A stretch of 64,000 bases of DNA, taken from assembly GCA_049303575.1 (NCBI GenBank), contig JBAQNH010000002.1, forward strand, positions 247,932 through 311,931, in the 5' to 3' direction. Below are positions 5,305 to 42,701 of the stretch, piece after piece; within the stretch, counting starts at the first letter, position 1, and every line of letters starts with the position of its first letter. The notes under the pieces were generated by a model. That model was not told where the DNA came from. It saw nothing but the letters and a program-made list of their open reading frames with translations, and searched no databases. Origin of the DNA: Microgenomates group bacterium (GTDB taxonomy: Bacteria; Patescibacteriota; Microgenomatia; UBA1400; MFAQ01). The position numbers and the translations under genes were made by a program.

Positions 5305-5889
5305 CTAGTTAAACTTCCGGTCGATTGCCGAAAAAAGATCACTAAATCTATTAAAATTATCTTCGGAAATTGCAAAATCCACAGCAATTTTCGGGATAAT
5401 TGCTTGATGGTCATTAATTTGTCTATCTAAATCAGACAAATATGGGGCAGCCTCTCTTTCTGTTCTTCTTAATATATTTTTTATAATTATTTCTCTGGGT
5501 AAGTCTATCCTTATGGTGAATAACTTGAAATTATTTTTTATGGCAAAGTCTTGTACAAATTCAAATTTTCTATCAATGCTACTATCTAAAATAATAAACC
5601 CGTTACTCTTTGGAAGTTTCTCAAGAAGATATGCCAGGTAACTCAATAATATTTTTTGTTTATTATCATTATTATCAGGAGAAACAAGATTTTCGATAAT
5701 ATCGCGAATATCATCATTATTTATCCTAATTCCCTCATATTTCTCCTCTAATTTCTTGGCAATATAACTTTTTCCTGACCCTGTAATCCCGGAAAATAAC
5801 ACCAGAAACTTTTGATTTTTTTTATCTAAATTCCTTATCTGCTTAACGTGAATATTAAAAATTTGTTCGAGTATAGCTTGTGGGTCCAT
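5305..5889 (-). CDS. P-loop NTPase / predicted kinase (AAA_33 or zeta-toxin-like fold)
   Basis: Walker A GITGSGKS, hhhhD Walker B-like ILDSS; AT-rich; the only minus-strand gene in the first 50 kb. Confidence 0.5.
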   Translation of the reverse strand: MDPQAILEQIFNIHVKQIRNLDKKNQKFLVLFSGITGSGKSYIAKKLEEKYEGIRINNDDIRDIIENLVSPDNNDNKQKILLSYLAYLLEKLPKSNGFIILDSSIDRKFEFVQDFAIKNNFKLFTIRIDLPREIIIKNILRRTEREAAPYLSDLDRQINDHQAIIPKIAVDFAISEDNFNRFSDLFSAIDRKFN

Positions 5890-38068: not shown

Positions 38069-38596
38069 ATGAATCCTTCAAATAACTCAAACAACAATCG
38101 TGGCAGAGGAGGAGATCGTCCTCAACAAGACGGTTTCGAACAAGTTCTTCAAATCCGCCGCGTTAGTAAAAAGACCCAAGGTGGTAGTAACGTTTCTTTC
38201 TCCGCCTTAGTCGTTACCGGAGACAAAAAAGGCAAGGTTGGTCTAGGACTCGCCAAAGCCCCAAACGTTGCCGATGCTATCAAAAAAGCCGTTCGTCTTA
38301 GTAATCGTGACCTCGTCCAAGTTCCTTTGGTAAATGGAACCATTCCTTACGAAACCATTTCCAAGTTTGGTGCTTCCAAAGTACTCTTCCGCCCAGCACC
38401 CAAAGGTACCGGTATTATTGCTGGTTCCTCCATTCGTGCTGTCGTAGAAGCTGCTGGTGTCACCGACATCGTCTGTAAAGCTCTAGGTAGTAACAACAAA
38501 ACAACGAACGCCCGAGCTACCTTCAAAGCTTTAAAACAAGTCGAGTCTCTCGCCAAAAAGTACGCCCTCTTAAAAGAACTTAAAGTTAAAGCCTAA
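38069..38596 (+). CDS. rpsE: 30S ribosomal protein S5
   Basis: dsRBD-like domain and S5 C-terminal domain. Confidence 0.95.
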   Translation: MNPSNNSNNNRGRGGDRPQQDGFEQVLQIRRVSKKTQGGSNVSFSALVVTGDKKGKVGLGLAKAPNVADAIKKAVRLSNRDLVQVPLVNGTIPYETISKFGASKVLFRPAPKGTGIIAGSSIRAVVEAAGVTDIVCKALGSNNKTTNARATFKALKQVESLAKKYALLKELKVKA

Positions 38597-38601
38597 ATCC
38601 T

Positions 38602-39051
38602 ATGAACTTATCTAATCTCCCTCAATCAGTCAAAACAGGAAAAAAACGCCTTGGTCGTGGATATGGTTCTGGAGTTGGCGGTCACACTGTTGGTCGTGGA
38701 CAAAAAGGTCAAAAAACTCGTGGAGTTATCCCTTTATGGTTTGAAGGTGGTCAGCTTCCAATTGTCAGACGTACCCCTTTCATTAAAGGTAAACACCGTT
38801 TCCAGGTAATTAATCTTCAACCAATCACCGTCAACTTTGACATTCTTACTAGCTACTTCGAAGACAAAGCCGTTGTTGATGCCACCTCTTTAGTCAAGAC
38901 TCTCAAAGTCAGTGACAAAGAAGCCAAGCGTGGATTCAAGATCATTGCTACGGGCAAGCTCGAAAAAGCTCTTGAGGTAAACGTTCCCGCTTCTGCCGGA
39001 GCCATCAAAGCCATCGAAAAAGCTGGTGGCAAGTATACTTTTTCTAAGTAA
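38602..39051 (+). CDS. rplO: 50S ribosomal protein L15 (follows rpsE directly; no L30 gene)
   Basis: GRGYGSGVGGHTVGRGQKG motif. Confidence 0.95.
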   Translation: MNLSNLPQSVKTGKKRLGRGYGSGVGGHTVGRGQKGQKTRGVIPLWFEGGQLPIVRRTPFIKGKHRFQVINLQPITVNFDILTSYFEDKAVVDATSLVKTLKVSDKEAKRGFKIIATGKLEKALEVNVPASAGAIKAIEKAGGKYTFSK

Positions 39052-39074
39052 CCTAAAAATTGTACCCCTATTTA

Positions 39075-39100
39075 AAAAGGCCCTTGCTTGGGGCCTTTTT
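39075..39100 (+). terminator. rho-independent terminator after rplO
   Basis: A5-GGCCC-TTGCTT-GGGCC-T5. Confidence 0.6.
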
Positions 39101-39109
39101 GATATAATA
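39101..39109 (+). promoter_or_regulatory. extended -10 promoter (TGaTATAAT) for the first island ORF
   Basis: TGnTATAAT immediately after the terminator T-tract; RBS AGGAGG at 39139-39144, ATG at 39149. Confidence 0.5.
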
Positions 39110-39148
39110 CCGTCAAGCAACTTAAAATGACCTATTCCAGGAGGAAAA

Positions 39149-39526
39149 ATGGACAGAAAATATGTGAAATGTGTCTTGGATAAGGGCTTTGCTATTGTTC
39201 GGGAAAAGGAAAACATTGCCGATGGATGGTTCCCCAATATCACTTTTTTTGGGACCGACGGCAACTTTCTCTTTACTCTTCTCGGTGACTCCAAAAAAAA
39301 ATTCTACGATGCACTTACAAAGCTGGGCGACCCAGAGGCAAATCAAGAAGATCGTCAAGAATTTGACTACTCCACACTTTCCAAAAGTTATACCTTTGAG
39401 TGGAAGTTAGGCTGGCTTTGTGTCTTCGAAACAAATGTCGTAAAAGACAAGACTAAAGACAGTTTGGTTATCATCGACAAAACTTCTGCCAAGAAAATCC
39501 TTGAGGGAATTAAAAATCTAGTCTAG
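39149..39526 (+). CDS. hypothetical protein (125 aa), island ORF 1
   Basis: own promoter, RBS and terminator; no recognisable domain. Confidence 0.5.
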   Translation: MDRKYVKCVLDKGFAIVREKENIADGWFPNITFFGTDGNFLFTLLGDSKKKFYDALTKLGDPEANQEDRQEFDYSTLSKSYTFEWKLGWLCVFETNVVKDKTKDSLVIIDKTSAKKILEGIKNLV

Positions 39527-39532
39527 TCTCTC

Positions 39533-39558
39533 TCCACCCCACCCGGGGTGGTTTTTTG
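39533..39558 (+). terminator. repeated terminator hairpin, copy 1 (CCACCCCACCCGGGGTGG + T6)
   Basis: CCACCCC/GGGGTGG stem; near-identical copies at 40132 and 41321. Confidence 0.65.
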
Positions 39559-39615
39559 TAATATAATATCCCCCAAGCAACTTAAAATTCGATAATTCAA
39601 GAGAAGGAGCCTTAC

Positions 39616-40125
39616 ATGCAGAAAAAACTTGAACTAAGAAGCCAATTTGTTCGCCCGCACTTAATTCAAAGACTGAATAAACCAATCGGTCATGTAAACC
39701 CCTGGTCCTTCGGAGGGGGATTAGAAGACGGTGGTATTAGTCAAGAAGGTATGGATATCTTGAAAGACATCTTTTCTTTTGACTATATGGGATCATCGGA
39801 GTTCGAATGGGGAGCCGTTCCCGCGGCTTTAAACTTTATTGCCCAGCAATCAAGTCTCAAAACGGTCACATCCGGGGAGATTATGGGAGTTTATTACATC
39901 TGTCCGGTTAGTTATGAAGAGGGTGTGAAAGACACAATCAAGGTATTGCTTGAAGATGAACACACCCTTCGATTGAAAGAAGGCTGCGGCCTCAAGGACA
40001 GAGTCAAAAATCTGAATGAGTGGGACGAACGCAACGTTGGTTGGCTCGAACTGGACAACGGTTTCTTCTTCTTCACCGATAAAGAAATGTTTGAGAAAAC
40101 CAAACTTCTTTTTGAAGTTCCCTAA
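39616..40125 (+). CDS. hypothetical protein (169 aa), island ORF 2
   Basis: preceded by a TATAAT box, the shared 5'-UTR motif CAAGCAACTTAAAAT and RBS AAGGAG; no recognisable domain. Confidence 0.5.
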   Translation: MQKKLELRSQFVRPHLIQRLNKPIGHVNPWSFGGGLEDGGISQEGMDILKDIFSFDYMGSSEFEWGAVPAALNFIAQQSSLKTVTSGEIMGVYYICPVSYEEGVKDTIKVLLEDEHTLRLKEGCGLKDRVKNLNEWDERNVGWLELDNGFFFFTDKEMFEKTKLLFEVP

Positions 40126-40131
40126 ATACAT

Positions 40132-40157
40132 CACCACCCCCTACGGGGTGGTTTTTA
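40132..40157 (+). terminator. repeated terminator hairpin, copy 2 (loop variant CCCTACGGGG)
   Basis: CCACCCC-CTAC-GGGGTGG + T5. Confidence 0.6.
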
Positions 40158-40740
40158 GTGCCAAGGAAACCCCGCACAAGCGAGGTCTGTGCGGGGATGA
40201 ATTGGAAAAACAGGTTACCATCGTAAGATGGTATCCTGTTGGTAGTGTGAGAAGACTGAAACTAAACCATGTTACATATCAACAGGAGTTCCATATTGTT
40301 TGGGGTACTCGATACAGAAGAAAGTTTCTTAAAAAGTACGTTAAGCCCGAGTTTGTGAGATTGTTACAGCAAGTCGAGAAGAAGTATCCTACACTCCATG
40401 TGGTTGAGGTAAATACTAATGAAGATCATGTTCACCTACAGATTGAGATACCACCGAACCTTTCTTCTGCCGTCGTGGTAAAAAGGGTGAAGTGGTATCT
40501 GAGTAAGGGGTTAAAGAAGAAATTCAAGTTCATCCGTGAGATGTATCTCGACGGCAGTATATGGAGTGTGGGTTACTTCTCTTCAACCATTGGGCTTAAC
40601 GAAGAAACCATACGAGAGTACATTGTTAAACAAGGTCAAGAAGACCTGCCGAGGGAAGAGTAGTCTTCGAACAGAATACCACCAGGAAACCCCGGACCAA
40701 TGCGAGGCAAATGCCGAGTCTGTCCGGGGAGGACGTCATT
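40150..40740 (+). mobile_element. IS200/IS605-family insertion sequence (TnpA only), bounded by subterminal hairpins
   Basis: left-end hairpin CCCCGCACA...TGTGCGGGG (40170-40196) and right-end hairpin CCCCGGAC...GTCCGGGG (40690-40729), both preceded by GGAAACC; single HUH-Y1 transposase gene between them. Confidence 0.7.
40202..40663 (+). CDS. tnpA: IS200/IS605 family transposase TnpA (HUH Y1); start uncertain
   Basis: FHIVWGTRYRRKFL motif, HVHLQIEIPP (HxH), catalytic Tyr in SVGYFSSTIG; the track start at 40016 overlaps the upstream ORF and is an artefact; candidate starts are TTG 40202 or GTG 40247. Confidence 0.75.
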   Translation: MEKQVTIVRWYPVGSVRRLKLNHVTYQQEFHIVWGTRYRRKFLKKYVKPEFVRLLQQVEKKYPTLHVVEVNTNEDHVHLQIEIPPNLSSAVVVKRVKWYLSKGLKKKFKFIREMYLDGSIWSVGYFSSTIGLNEETIREYIVKQGQEDLPREE

Positions 40741-40820
40741 TTCATGCTATTAGCTTGACAAATATACAATTATAGGATAGTGTATAGATACTTTAAAATT
40801 CTATATTCCTGGAGGTTAAT

Positions 40821-41312
40821 ATGCCCTACGTTTTTCTTAGAAACTTACCTGAACACTTTATGGGTCTAGTCAATACTCCGCGTGAAATTTTCAGTCCAGC
40901 AACATCTACCGCCGATATGTATGCGAAAATCGCGGAAGCTGCCAGTTGTGAAGTCGATGGGGTAGAAATTCACTTATCAAGTGAAACTTACACCCTTCTT
41001 AATCTGGATGGTTCAGCGCGTAAGTGTCCGAATGTTCATGGTGAAGTAGAGTGGCACGGAAGTGAAAACCGAGATCTTAAGGTAAAACAAACAATCGCCG
41101 ATGCGATTCAGCAGTTTCTGAATTTGCATCTGGCCGGTGAAGGGTTTGATCTTACTTTCCACGACTCACCTGCTGGCACGTTCTTTGTTGAAAAGGGCGG
41201 CAAATCAGTTTTGATCCAAGGAGGGGAAGCCATTCCTCCAAACAAGGTTCTCGCTCAAGTTGCCTACGAAGTCCTGGGGCACGAAACCCCAGGTGTAATA
41301 ACCAACGACTAA
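40821..41312 (+). CDS. hypothetical protein (163 aa), island ORF 3
   Basis: TTGACA-like and TATAAT-like promoter elements upstream, RBS GGAGG, followed by terminator repeat copy 3. Confidence 0.5.
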   Translation: MPYVFLRNLPEHFMGLVNTPREIFSPATSTADMYAKIAEAASCEVDGVEIHLSSETYTLLNLDGSARKCPNVHGEVEWHGSENRDLKVKQTIADAIQQFLNLHLAGEGFDLTFHDSPAGTFFVEKGGKSVLIQGGEAIPPNKVLAQVAYEVLGHETPGVITND

Positions 41313-41320
41313 CCAAGATG

Positions 41321-41346
41321 TTCTAACTAACCACCCCACCCGGGGT
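41321..41346 (+). terminator. repeated terminator hairpin, copy 3
   Basis: ACCACCCCACCCGGGGTGG + T5, then TGTAAAAT -10-like box ahead of secY. Confidence 0.65.
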
Positions 41347-41414
41347 GGTTTTTCTTTGGTGTAAAATACCTTCTGACTCACCCAAGTTTCAAGCCAACTG
41401 TTAAAATAAAAACA

Positions 41415-42701
41415 ATGAATAATTTATTAGCCCCCCTGCGTGCCTTACTGAAGATTCCCGAACTTCGTCGTCGTTTAGTCTTCACCGCCATCGTTATTGC
41501 CATTTTCCGACTCGTTGCTCATGTCCCCGCCCCGGGCATTAATCTGGCTGCTCTTAAAGAAATGTTCAACTCGTCTGCCTTTTTATCTCTTCTCGACGTC
41601 TTTTCTGGCGGTACTCTCGGGAACTTCTCTATTATGGCTCTTGGTCTTAACCCTTACATCAACGCCTCTATTATTTTCCAAATGCTCGGCATGGTCATTC
41701 CCAAGCTTGAAGCACTTCAAAAGGAAGGGGACTACGGTCGTCAAAAAATTAATCAATACACTCGTCTCCTCACCATTCCTCTCTGTTTTCTTCAAGGCAT
41801 CGCTCTAATTTTTCTTCTCCAAAAACAAGGTCTTACTACTACGGCCGATCCACTTCAGCTTGCTTCTGTTGTCTTTACTCTCGCCGCCGGCACCTCTCTT
41901 CTCATCTGGCTTGGAGAGCAACTAAACGACTACGGCCTGGGAAATGGTATCAGTCTTATCATTTTTGTTGGCATCGTTACTCGTATTCCCATAAGTCTGA
42001 TGCAGACTATCTCCACTATTGACCAAACAAGGATATTTACCTACCTTATCTTTCTTATCTTCGTCATCGCCGCCATCTATGCCATCGTGCGGACAGGTGA
42101 AGCTGTTCGTGAAATTCCCATTCAGTCTGCTCGTCGTGGCGGGGGGGCCTCTTACGGCGCCGTCGCCAGTAGCCATCTTCCCCTCCGTTTAAACCAGGCT
42201 GGTGTTATCCCAATTATCTTTGCCGTGTCCTTTATGCTCATTCCTGGGATGCTCAGTCAAATTTTGGGTCGCGTTAATCAACCGGCACTTGCTAGCTTTG
42301 CTACTACCTTGAGTATTTTGTTATCTCCGAGCTCTGTTCTTTATAATGTCCTCTACTTTGTTTTGGTGGTCGCTTTTACCTACTTTTATACCGCCGTTGT
42401 TTTCAATCCCGAAAAAATTGCCAAAGATCTTCGCTCCTCTGGATCATTCATTCCTGGTATAAGACCCGGTCCTGACACCGTTAATTATCTAAATTTTATC
42501 CTCGGTCGTATCACTCTGGTCGGAGCCAGTTTCCTTGGTCTTGTCGCCGTTCTTCCTTCAATTATGTCCGGTTTTACCGGTATTTCCTCACTAGCTATTG
42601 GTGGTACCAGTGTTCTTATCGTCGTCTCGGTTGTTCTCGAGATCTTGAAGACCATCAACTCCCAGCTCTATATGCACAGTTACGACAAATTCCTGGATTA
42701 G
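41415..42701 (+). CDS. secY: preprotein translocase subunit SecY
   Basis: 428 aa, 10 TM helices, SecY signature regions. Confidence 0.95.
   Translation: MNNLLAPLRALLKIPELRRRLVFTAIVIAIFRLVAHVPAPGINLAALKEMFNSSAFLSLLDVFSGGTLGNFSIMALGLNPYINASIIFQMLGMVIPKLEALQKEGDYGRQKINQYTRLLTIPLCFLQGIALIFLLQKQGLTTTADPLQLASVVFTLAAGTSLLIWLGEQLNDYGLGNGISLIIFVGIVTRIPISLMQTISTIDQTRIFTYLIFLIFVIAAIYAIVRTGEAVREIPIQSARRGGGASYGAVASSHLPLRLNQAGVIPIIFAVSFMLIPGMLSQILGRVNQPALASFATTLSILLSPSSVLYNVLYFVLVVAFTYFYTAVVFNPEKIAKDLRSSGSFIPGIRPGPDTVNYLNFILGRITLVGASFLGLVAVLPSIMSGFTGISSLAIGGTSVLIVVSVVLEILKTINSQLYMHSYDKFLD

Follow-up and report, generated by a model that had tools for sequence, protein, structure and literature searches.

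What lies between the ribosomal protein gene rplO and secY in this stretch of DNA, is it still a mobile element, and why is it found immediately behind an intrinsic terminator? The window (the whole stretch of DNA that was analysed, 64 kb in length) reads at this place, in order, rplR, rpsE, rplO, ORF125, ORF169, terminator, insertion sequence (IS), ORF163, secY, adk. The answer to the first question can be given with high confidence: the IS is an autonomous tnpA-only element of the IS200/IS605 family, IS200 group, and its nearest kin form a subfamily of compact elements (559-670 bp) found widely among Patescibacteria (CPR).

Extent of the element, its transposase and its leader

The tnpA-only element is 584 bp long and occupies window positions 40157-40740 of the + strand, for which 40156-40739 are equivalent coordinates: the T's at both junctions are unassignable and leave the junctions ambiguous by 1 nt. 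Relatives served to place these boundaries in register, by way of multicopy elements, a tandem junction and empty sites. A scan of one genome per species yielded 80 loci, mostly in Patescibacteria MAGs. (The first-pass annotation had begun the IS at 40150; positions 40150-40156 are the final stem bases and the T-run of the adjacent terminator, and the actual start is 40156/40157.) Neither inverted terminal repeats nor a target-site duplication is seen. Insertion without duplication is shown in relatives, and the empty homologous terminator of L094, described below, points to it for the window copy. The expected empty site of the window copy is GGGGTGGTTTTT abutting TTCATGCTATTAGC, and its expected junction of right end (RE) to left end (LE) is ...GTCAT(T) directly followed by (T)AGTGCC...; a metagenome scan with the LE pattern returned only two loci and no exact empty site for this copy. 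The intragenic site in L009 implies an IS with one T more than the other sites imply. Between the ends there is a single ORF, as expected from the earlier remark that neither tnpB nor iscB is carried as cargo, for which 584 bp leaves no space.

This ORF, tnpA (40247-40663, + strand, GTG start), has as its product a 138-aa transposase of the Y1 HUH type, the key residues of which are H61-V-H63, Y125 and Q129. It is matched by Pfam Y1_Tnp (PF01797; E 1.9e-26, 93 bits against a cutoff of 23) and by the NCBIfam equivalog transpos_IS200 (NF033573; 98.4 bits against a cutoff of 55), and it aligns over its full length to IS608 TnpA (PDB 2a6m; E 2e-15), with DHVHL falling on DHIHI and REYIVKQ on KQYIENQ (KQY127IENQ131 in IS608). 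The HUH residues of IS608 are H64 and H66, and its Gln is Q131. The catalytic Tyr of IS608 is Y127 (PMC3597680). In an alignment of the window TnpA with 13 homologues H61, H63, Y125 and Q129 are invariant, and every residue that is invariant across the 14 proteins is present in the window TnpA, which is of full length; the frame is intact, as had been claimed from first inspection. The accompanying statement that all catalytic motifs are present needs partial correction: HUH and Tyr are indeed there, but the Tyr is Y125 in the C-terminal REYIVKQ and is not near the N-terminal 'YHxVW'/FHIVWG strand or the SVGYF segment. The same gene is on record in GenBank as MFZ3069053.1, already annotated as an IS200/IS605 family transposase. 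That entry is called as 215 aa from ATG 40016, a start that makes it overlap the end of ORF169 and run across both the terminator and the left end of the IS; the homologues put the start of tnpA at GTG 40247 instead of 40016. The exact 138-aa protein is not on record, gene callers having chosen longer starts.

Ahead of tnpA is a leader hairpin (AACAGGTTACCATC / GATGGTATCCTGTT, 40209-40240, + strand; repeat search, fold z -5.7), which ends 6 nt upstream of the GTG; in relatives the distance from the corresponding hairpin to the start codon is 0-8 nt. What is kept in this hairpin is structure and not sequence (z < -2 in 38 of 47 distinct relatives), and no canonical Shine-Dalgarno sequence precedes tnpA. 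In IS200, itself nearly dormant, a stem-loop that stands right before the start codon sequesters the Shine-Dalgarno sequence, a design for low expression (PMC4513863). By analogy, the leader hairpin, the absent Shine-Dalgarno sequence and the GTG start probably keep transposase low in the window IS also.

Hairpins, guides and putative cleavage sites

Both subterminal hairpins lie where the first-pass annotation had placed them, and their stems covary across about 45 relatives. The left end (40157-40205, + strand; delimited by folding and by covariation of its stem and outer helix in 45 distinct elements) consists of a 13-nt leader, the guide GAAA (40166-40169), the hairpin (40170-40196) and ATGAA (40197-40201). 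In the hairpin CCCCGCACA (40170-40178) pairs with TGTGCGGGG (40188-40196), with a single-stranded DNA fold of -12.3 kcal/mol (z -3.9; 0 of 200 shuffles as good). An outer helix of 3-4 bp, in the window CCAA (40161-40164) with TTGG (40202-40205) on the + strand, surrounds the left guide and also covaries among the 45 distinct elements. The right end (40685-40740, + strand) is delimited by folding, by covariation and by the right flanks of relatives, which diverge after GTCATT; it consists of GGAAA, containing the guide GAAA (40686-40689), a hairpin with an inner GGC/GCC stem in which CCCCGGAC (40690-40697) pairs with GTCCGGGG (40722-40729), and the tail AGGACG-TCAT-T. This right hairpin is the minimum free energy fold, its energy alone not being significant (z -1.1); judged by covariation across the relatives, it is real.

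The covariation is of the compensatory kind. (What this means for the LE stem is that pairs 6, 7 and 8 are changed on both sides in 16/45, 16/45 and 9/45 distinct sequences, respectively, and that the covariation score is 0.39, compared with 0.12 for shuffles and at most 0.07 for slid partners.) The RE stem gives similar covariation. Extraction of the ends demanded at least 7 of 8 stem pairs, a threshold that inflates 'percent paired' and leaves the double changes, the guide pair and the outer helix unaffected. The two ends also have a common lead-in, as had been noticed at the outset: AGGAAACCCCG is found at 40164 and at 40684, and GGAAACCCCG occurs exactly twice in 64 kb, once per IS end.

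The logic by which such ends are cut is known from IS608 (ISHp608 of Helicobacter pylori), in which a tetranucleotide on the 5' side of each hairpin foot pairs with TTAC on the left and with TCAA on the right, leaving the third base of the cleavage site without a partner, and in which AG follows the right foot and AT the left foot on the 3' side (PMC3201880). In the window the guide is GAAA at both ends, occupying the 4 nt directly 5' of each hairpin; TTTT flanks the element on the left, and its right tail reads AG-GACG-TCAT-T. On the IS608 pattern GAAA would pair with TTTT of the left flank and with TCAT of the right end, making the last four T's of T5 40152-40156, on the host side, the putative left cleavage and target site and TCAT (40736-40739, + strand) the putative right cleavage site. 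The assignment of TCAT is supported by guide/site covariation among relatives: three lineages combine GAAG with TCAC, a fourth has GATT and TCCA, and at g4:c-1 there is A:T in 14 sequences, G:C in 2, T:A in 1 and no pairing in 1. AG 3' of the RE foot is invariant, and AT after the LE foot is found in about 90% or more of the 45 relatives. A further covariation was seen at the right end, where the fifth base 5' of the hairpin foot (window 40685) varies together with the third base past the foot (40732): in all but one of 15 such sequences, among them the window, G is found with G, and three lineages combine A with T; we know of no IS608 interaction that accounts for it.

Likeness to IS608 covers the Y1 HUH TnpA with its HUH, Tyr and Gln aligned, the presence of subterminal hairpins at both ends on one strand, the lack of target duplication, the 4-nt guide directly 5' of each hairpin foot, the T-C-A-N pattern of the right site (which ends the 10-nt tail here and lies 10 nt 3' of the foot in IS608), and the AG and AT that follow the right and left feet (PMC3201880). 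The differences are that the window IS lacks tnpB and is only 584 bp long, that its subfamily targets TTTT at terminators and IS608 targets TTAC, that the left cleavage site lies 13-14 nt from the hairpin foot as opposed to 19 nt in IS608, and that the covarying outer helix enclosing the left guide and the leader hairpin before the start are outside the IS608 picture. Amino acid identity between the two transposases is ~30%, estimated by eye.

If the analogy with IS608 holds, a TnpA dimer would bind both hairpins on the top strand while it is single-stranded, and the pairing of GAAA with TTTT and with TCAT would position Y125 for cleavage. The top strand would then be released as a circle of single-stranded DNA in which RE abuts LE, and the circle would integrate 3' of another T-run recognised by the left guide.

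The rplO-secY island and the landing sites of the subfamily

The gap between rplO (38602-39051, from the sequence and ORF listing of the window) and secY (41415-42701, followed by adk) extends over 39052-41414 and is a variable island of small lineage-specific accessory ORFs, here ORF125 (39149-39526), ORF169 (39616-40125) and, after the IS, ORF163 (40821-41312). None of the three has a match in Pfam or NCBIfam. In relatives the island ORF families, which there include an additional Cys-rich DUF2284-like family, differ in number and order: there are five island ORFs in L093 and one in L010, and L006 contains a pair of ORF169 paralogues. The remark that a mobile element in a CPR ribosomal operon is unusual was for this reason overstated; the site is a variable island between rplO and secY, and L010 has an IS at the homologous terminator.

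The terminator hairpin that had been noted beside the IS is confirmed by terminator scan and fold: ACCACCCCCTACGGGGTGGT followed by T5 at 40133-40156 (+ strand), directly after ORF169, with the stem CCACCCC (40134-40140) / GGGGTGG (40145-40151), the T-run at 40152-40156, and a single-stranded DNA fold of -8.9 kcal/mol (z -3.9). Near-identical terminators, CCACCCCnnnnGGGGTGG plus T-run, stand at 39534-39551, 40134-40151 and 41331-41348, one behind each island ORF, and one of these three (40134-40151) carries the IS; there is no fourth occurrence in 64 kb, with 0.06 expected by chance. This suggests that the island ORFs travel or duplicate as cassettes, terminator included. In L094, the ORF163 homologue of which is 60% identical, the near-identical terminator ACCACCCCATCCGGGGTGGTTTTT is followed by the ORF163-type upstream region without an IS, and L093 has the same IS-free arrangement with a different terminator. 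From these empty-site analogues it follows that the terminator is host DNA, outside the IS, and that the IS begins directly after its T-tract. The alternative that the terminator hairpin is part of the IS, as it is in IS200, was rejected: the flanks of identical copies differ outward from the T-run, and the L094 hairpin is IS-free.

The earlier proposal that insertion takes place 3' of a short target motif is borne out, the motif being a T-run. At 63 of 66 distinct sites there is a T-run of at least four that ends 12-17 nt (mostly 13-14) 5' of the hairpin foot, with one outlier at 10 nt, and at 50 of the 66 a perfect GC-containing hairpin lies within 3 nt of the T-run; several others have imperfect hairpins. 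Background T5 runs at the same loci have such a hairpin in 203/3698 cases (5.5%; odds ratio 54, p 6e-47), and the 36 nt 5' of the T-run have a median fold of -12.7 kcal/mol, compared with -3.5 in the background. The window copy obeys this hairpin and T-run rule. Thus, the family lands in the great majority of cases on intrinsic terminators. Landing of this kind leaves the upstream gene with its terminator, and it shields tnpA against read-through transcription.

Whether the transposase chooses terminators or the association merely reflects purifying selection, harmless insertions being the ones that survive in gene-dense genomes, is a separate matter. Selection could contribute in part, although we consider it somewhat doubtful as the source of the association. 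It gains from the fact that the guide GAAA specifies only a T-rich tetranucleotide, from a coding density of ~77% in these genomes (by a crude ORF call) and from the expected loss of insertions in genes. When the comparison is confined to intergenic T5 runs, however, a hairpin precedes only 104/970 (10.7%), as against 76% of the insertion sites (odds ratio 26); the one clearly intragenic insertion (L009/L006) is also behind a hairpin, ACCGTTG...CAACGGT, with T-run; and the distance from T-run to element is fixed. On the strength of the intergenic control and of the hairpin at the intragenic site, structural targeting is favoured over the survival of harmless insertions. The more specific proposition, that this CPR IS200 subfamily recognises terminators as single-stranded DNA structure (hairpin plus T-tract) and not merely as the word TTTT, is put forward tentatively, with a likelihood that we would place a little short of even.

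A precedent for such a choice of target exists. Bacterial class C (IIC) group II introns insert just downstream of terminator stem-loops, which they recognise as DNA structure. The analogy is restricted to target choice, since the machinery of these introns (ribozyme and reverse transcriptase) is different. If structural recognition is correct, the subfamily would have a self-targeting 'safe harbour' strategy comparable with that of the group IIC introns. The left end of IS200 has its own terminator hairpin, whereas the window IS sits behind a terminator of the host; under structural recognition an element could do without a terminator of its own and become smaller than IS200, at 559-670 bp. 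No report of terminator targeting by IS200/IS605 elements was found in the searchable literature, a body of work that does not extend to ISfinder/TnPedia or to older subscription papers such as the IS1541 insertion-site study.

As regards the predicted insertion on the lagging-strand template, the + strand carries 59 of the 64 window ORFs with a length of 100 aa or more, co-oriented with the IS, which agrees with the prediction. The window + strand is C-rich throughout (GC skew -0.03 to -0.15; GC3 skew of the + ORFs -0.44), which does not agree with it, and a C-rich + strand that nevertheless carries the genes is the opposite of the usual G-rich leading/coding strand. Flanks are G-rich on the IS top strand at 61 of 78 loci, in the direction that a lagging-strand bias would give, a figure that is confounded with gene orientation; they are C-rich in the window and in L010. 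A replichore reading of the orientation of copies in an Uhrbacteria MAG was dropped when the sign of local GC skew did not change with orientation.

Copies, mobility and place in the family

The window holds a single copy; no further copies, solo ends or miniatures are present in its 64 kb. Elsewhere the lineage is repeated. The nearest copies are in other metagenomes: the L097 element, 94% identical in DNA, is behind a different terminator, downstream of map, where the neighbouring host gene is only 79% identical, and L098 has a copy that is 92.5% identical beside a putative tRNA gene. P0004, with a TnpA 77% identical to that of the window, has elements at least 99.5% identical at no fewer than five sites, with at least four left and five right contexts and with flanks that begin to differ immediately outside (T)AATGCCAAGGAAACCCC on the 5' side and GGAGGATGTCAT(T) on the 3' side; some of its contigs look chimeric, joined through the repeat. 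Other relatives number 11 copies in one Uhrbacteria MAG and at least nine in MFD01112.bin.1.8, including a tandem dimer with the junction GTCACT directly followed by CTATTAGAGG. Both ends of the window IS match the ends of the multicopy relatives in register.

Several related arrangements occur. The tandem dimer with GTCACT joined to CTATTAG is at ~3900-5100 of L080, the right-end tail is duplicated in L015, and in L023 (~860-1420) a second, distant Y1 transposase gene with hairpins of its own directly follows the first element. L099 (Ga0209717_1000001) has on its reverse strand, at ~5600-5860, a PATE/MITE-like miniature of ~220 bp that lacks tnpA and is made of left end, leader hairpin, a few codons and right end; it too is behind a hairpin and T5. 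L091 and L092, Logan contigs of other runs of the same study, begin inside the RE hairpin loop, implying that assembly breaks at the IS in those samples and hinting at repetition or polymorphism of the IS there.

With regard to mobility, the first-pass annotation had associated a fossil with the lack of other copies and a degraded frame. The frame is intact, and the copies that are 92-94% identical at other sites in other metagenomes, together with the multicopy close relatives, argue that the IS is not a fossil. On sequence grounds, then, mobility is indicated for the subfamily and for this lineage (L097, L098), the source genome contributing one copy in 64 kb. It is nevertheless conceivable, though we think it unlikely, that the window copy, intact as it looks, is a recent fossil, an inactive remnant immobile in its source genome: such a remnant would fit the lone copy in 64 kb, the GTG start, missing Shine-Dalgarno sequence and strong leader hairpin, and the near-dormancy of IS200 itself (PMC4513863). 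Against this, frame, catalytic residues, hairpins, guides and cleavage sites are all unimpaired by comparison with multicopy relatives, and the multicopy elements share the features of weak expression, which are for that reason to be seen as regulation and not as decay.

L010 (SecY 91% and L15 89% identical) has an IS with 75% aa identity behind the homologous rplO-secY terminator. Either the two share an old insertion or one terminator has been used repeatedly, and presence or absence is uninformative in this regard, excision being seamless in the IS200/IS605 family. The same locus provides the main reason for considering a vertically inherited, domesticated RAYT-like Y1 transposase that is fixed at the rplO-secY terminator and no longer mobile, a reading that is highly improbable: the L010 homologue follows the homologous terminator in a host whose proteins are 77-98% identical, its IS DNA (73%) has diverged to an extent similar to the flanks (77-83%), and the copy in the window is single, but copies 92-94% identical stand at unrelated loci where host DNA is only 79% identical, the nearest relatives are multicopy, both ends retain cleavage sites that match the guides, the hairpins are direct and not inverted, GGAAACCCCG, unlike REPs, is not repeated elsewhere in 64 kb, and the L094 terminator has no IS.

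Comparison with named systems leads to the same assignment as an autonomous IS. RAYT/REP (TnpA-REP) systems likewise have a Y1 HUH protein flanked by GC-rich hairpins; there the REPs are inverted around the RAYT and highly repeated, and the RAYT is single copy (PMC3184786, PMC5581495). A RAYT/REP identity was rejected for the window element, its hairpins being direct, its end motifs occurring only at the IS in 64 kb and its homologues being multicopy. The IS605 and IS1341 groups were likewise set aside, there being no tnpB ORF within the IS or adjoining it.

IS200/IS1541 elements of Salmonella and Yersinia are, like the window IS, tnpA-only, and the match to the transpos_IS200 equivalog is shared with them. 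IS200, at 707 bp, has been called the smallest autonomous IS (PMC4513863); the window copy, at 584 bp, and the subfamily, at 559-670 bp, are shorter. An Rfam scan of 38500-42000 at E <= 1 gave no match and hence no known IS-associated RNA, nor is an art200-like sRNA in evidence. Identity to named plasmid-borne ISs is below 40% aa, the best being an IS1541A-like element at 39%. In all the sequence-level features tested, the window IS is a member of the IS200 group.

As a class, then, the window IS is ordinary, and its relatives in CPR almost always land behind terminators. For the window itself little changes, since the IS was correctly recognised and is already labelled in GenBank. In practical terms, elements of this kind mark terminators, break metagenome assemblies and cause start codons to be miscalled. 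For the family, a compact Patescibacteria IS200 lineage obeys the guide and cleavage-site rules of IS608 with a simple T-run as target; the family-wide preference for terminators is the only part of possible specialist interest. If that preference is intrinsic to the transposase, it would constitute natural, structure-directed, low-damage targeting by an enzyme of ~140 aa, and it would help to account for the persistence of ISs in genomes that are very small and densely packed with genes.
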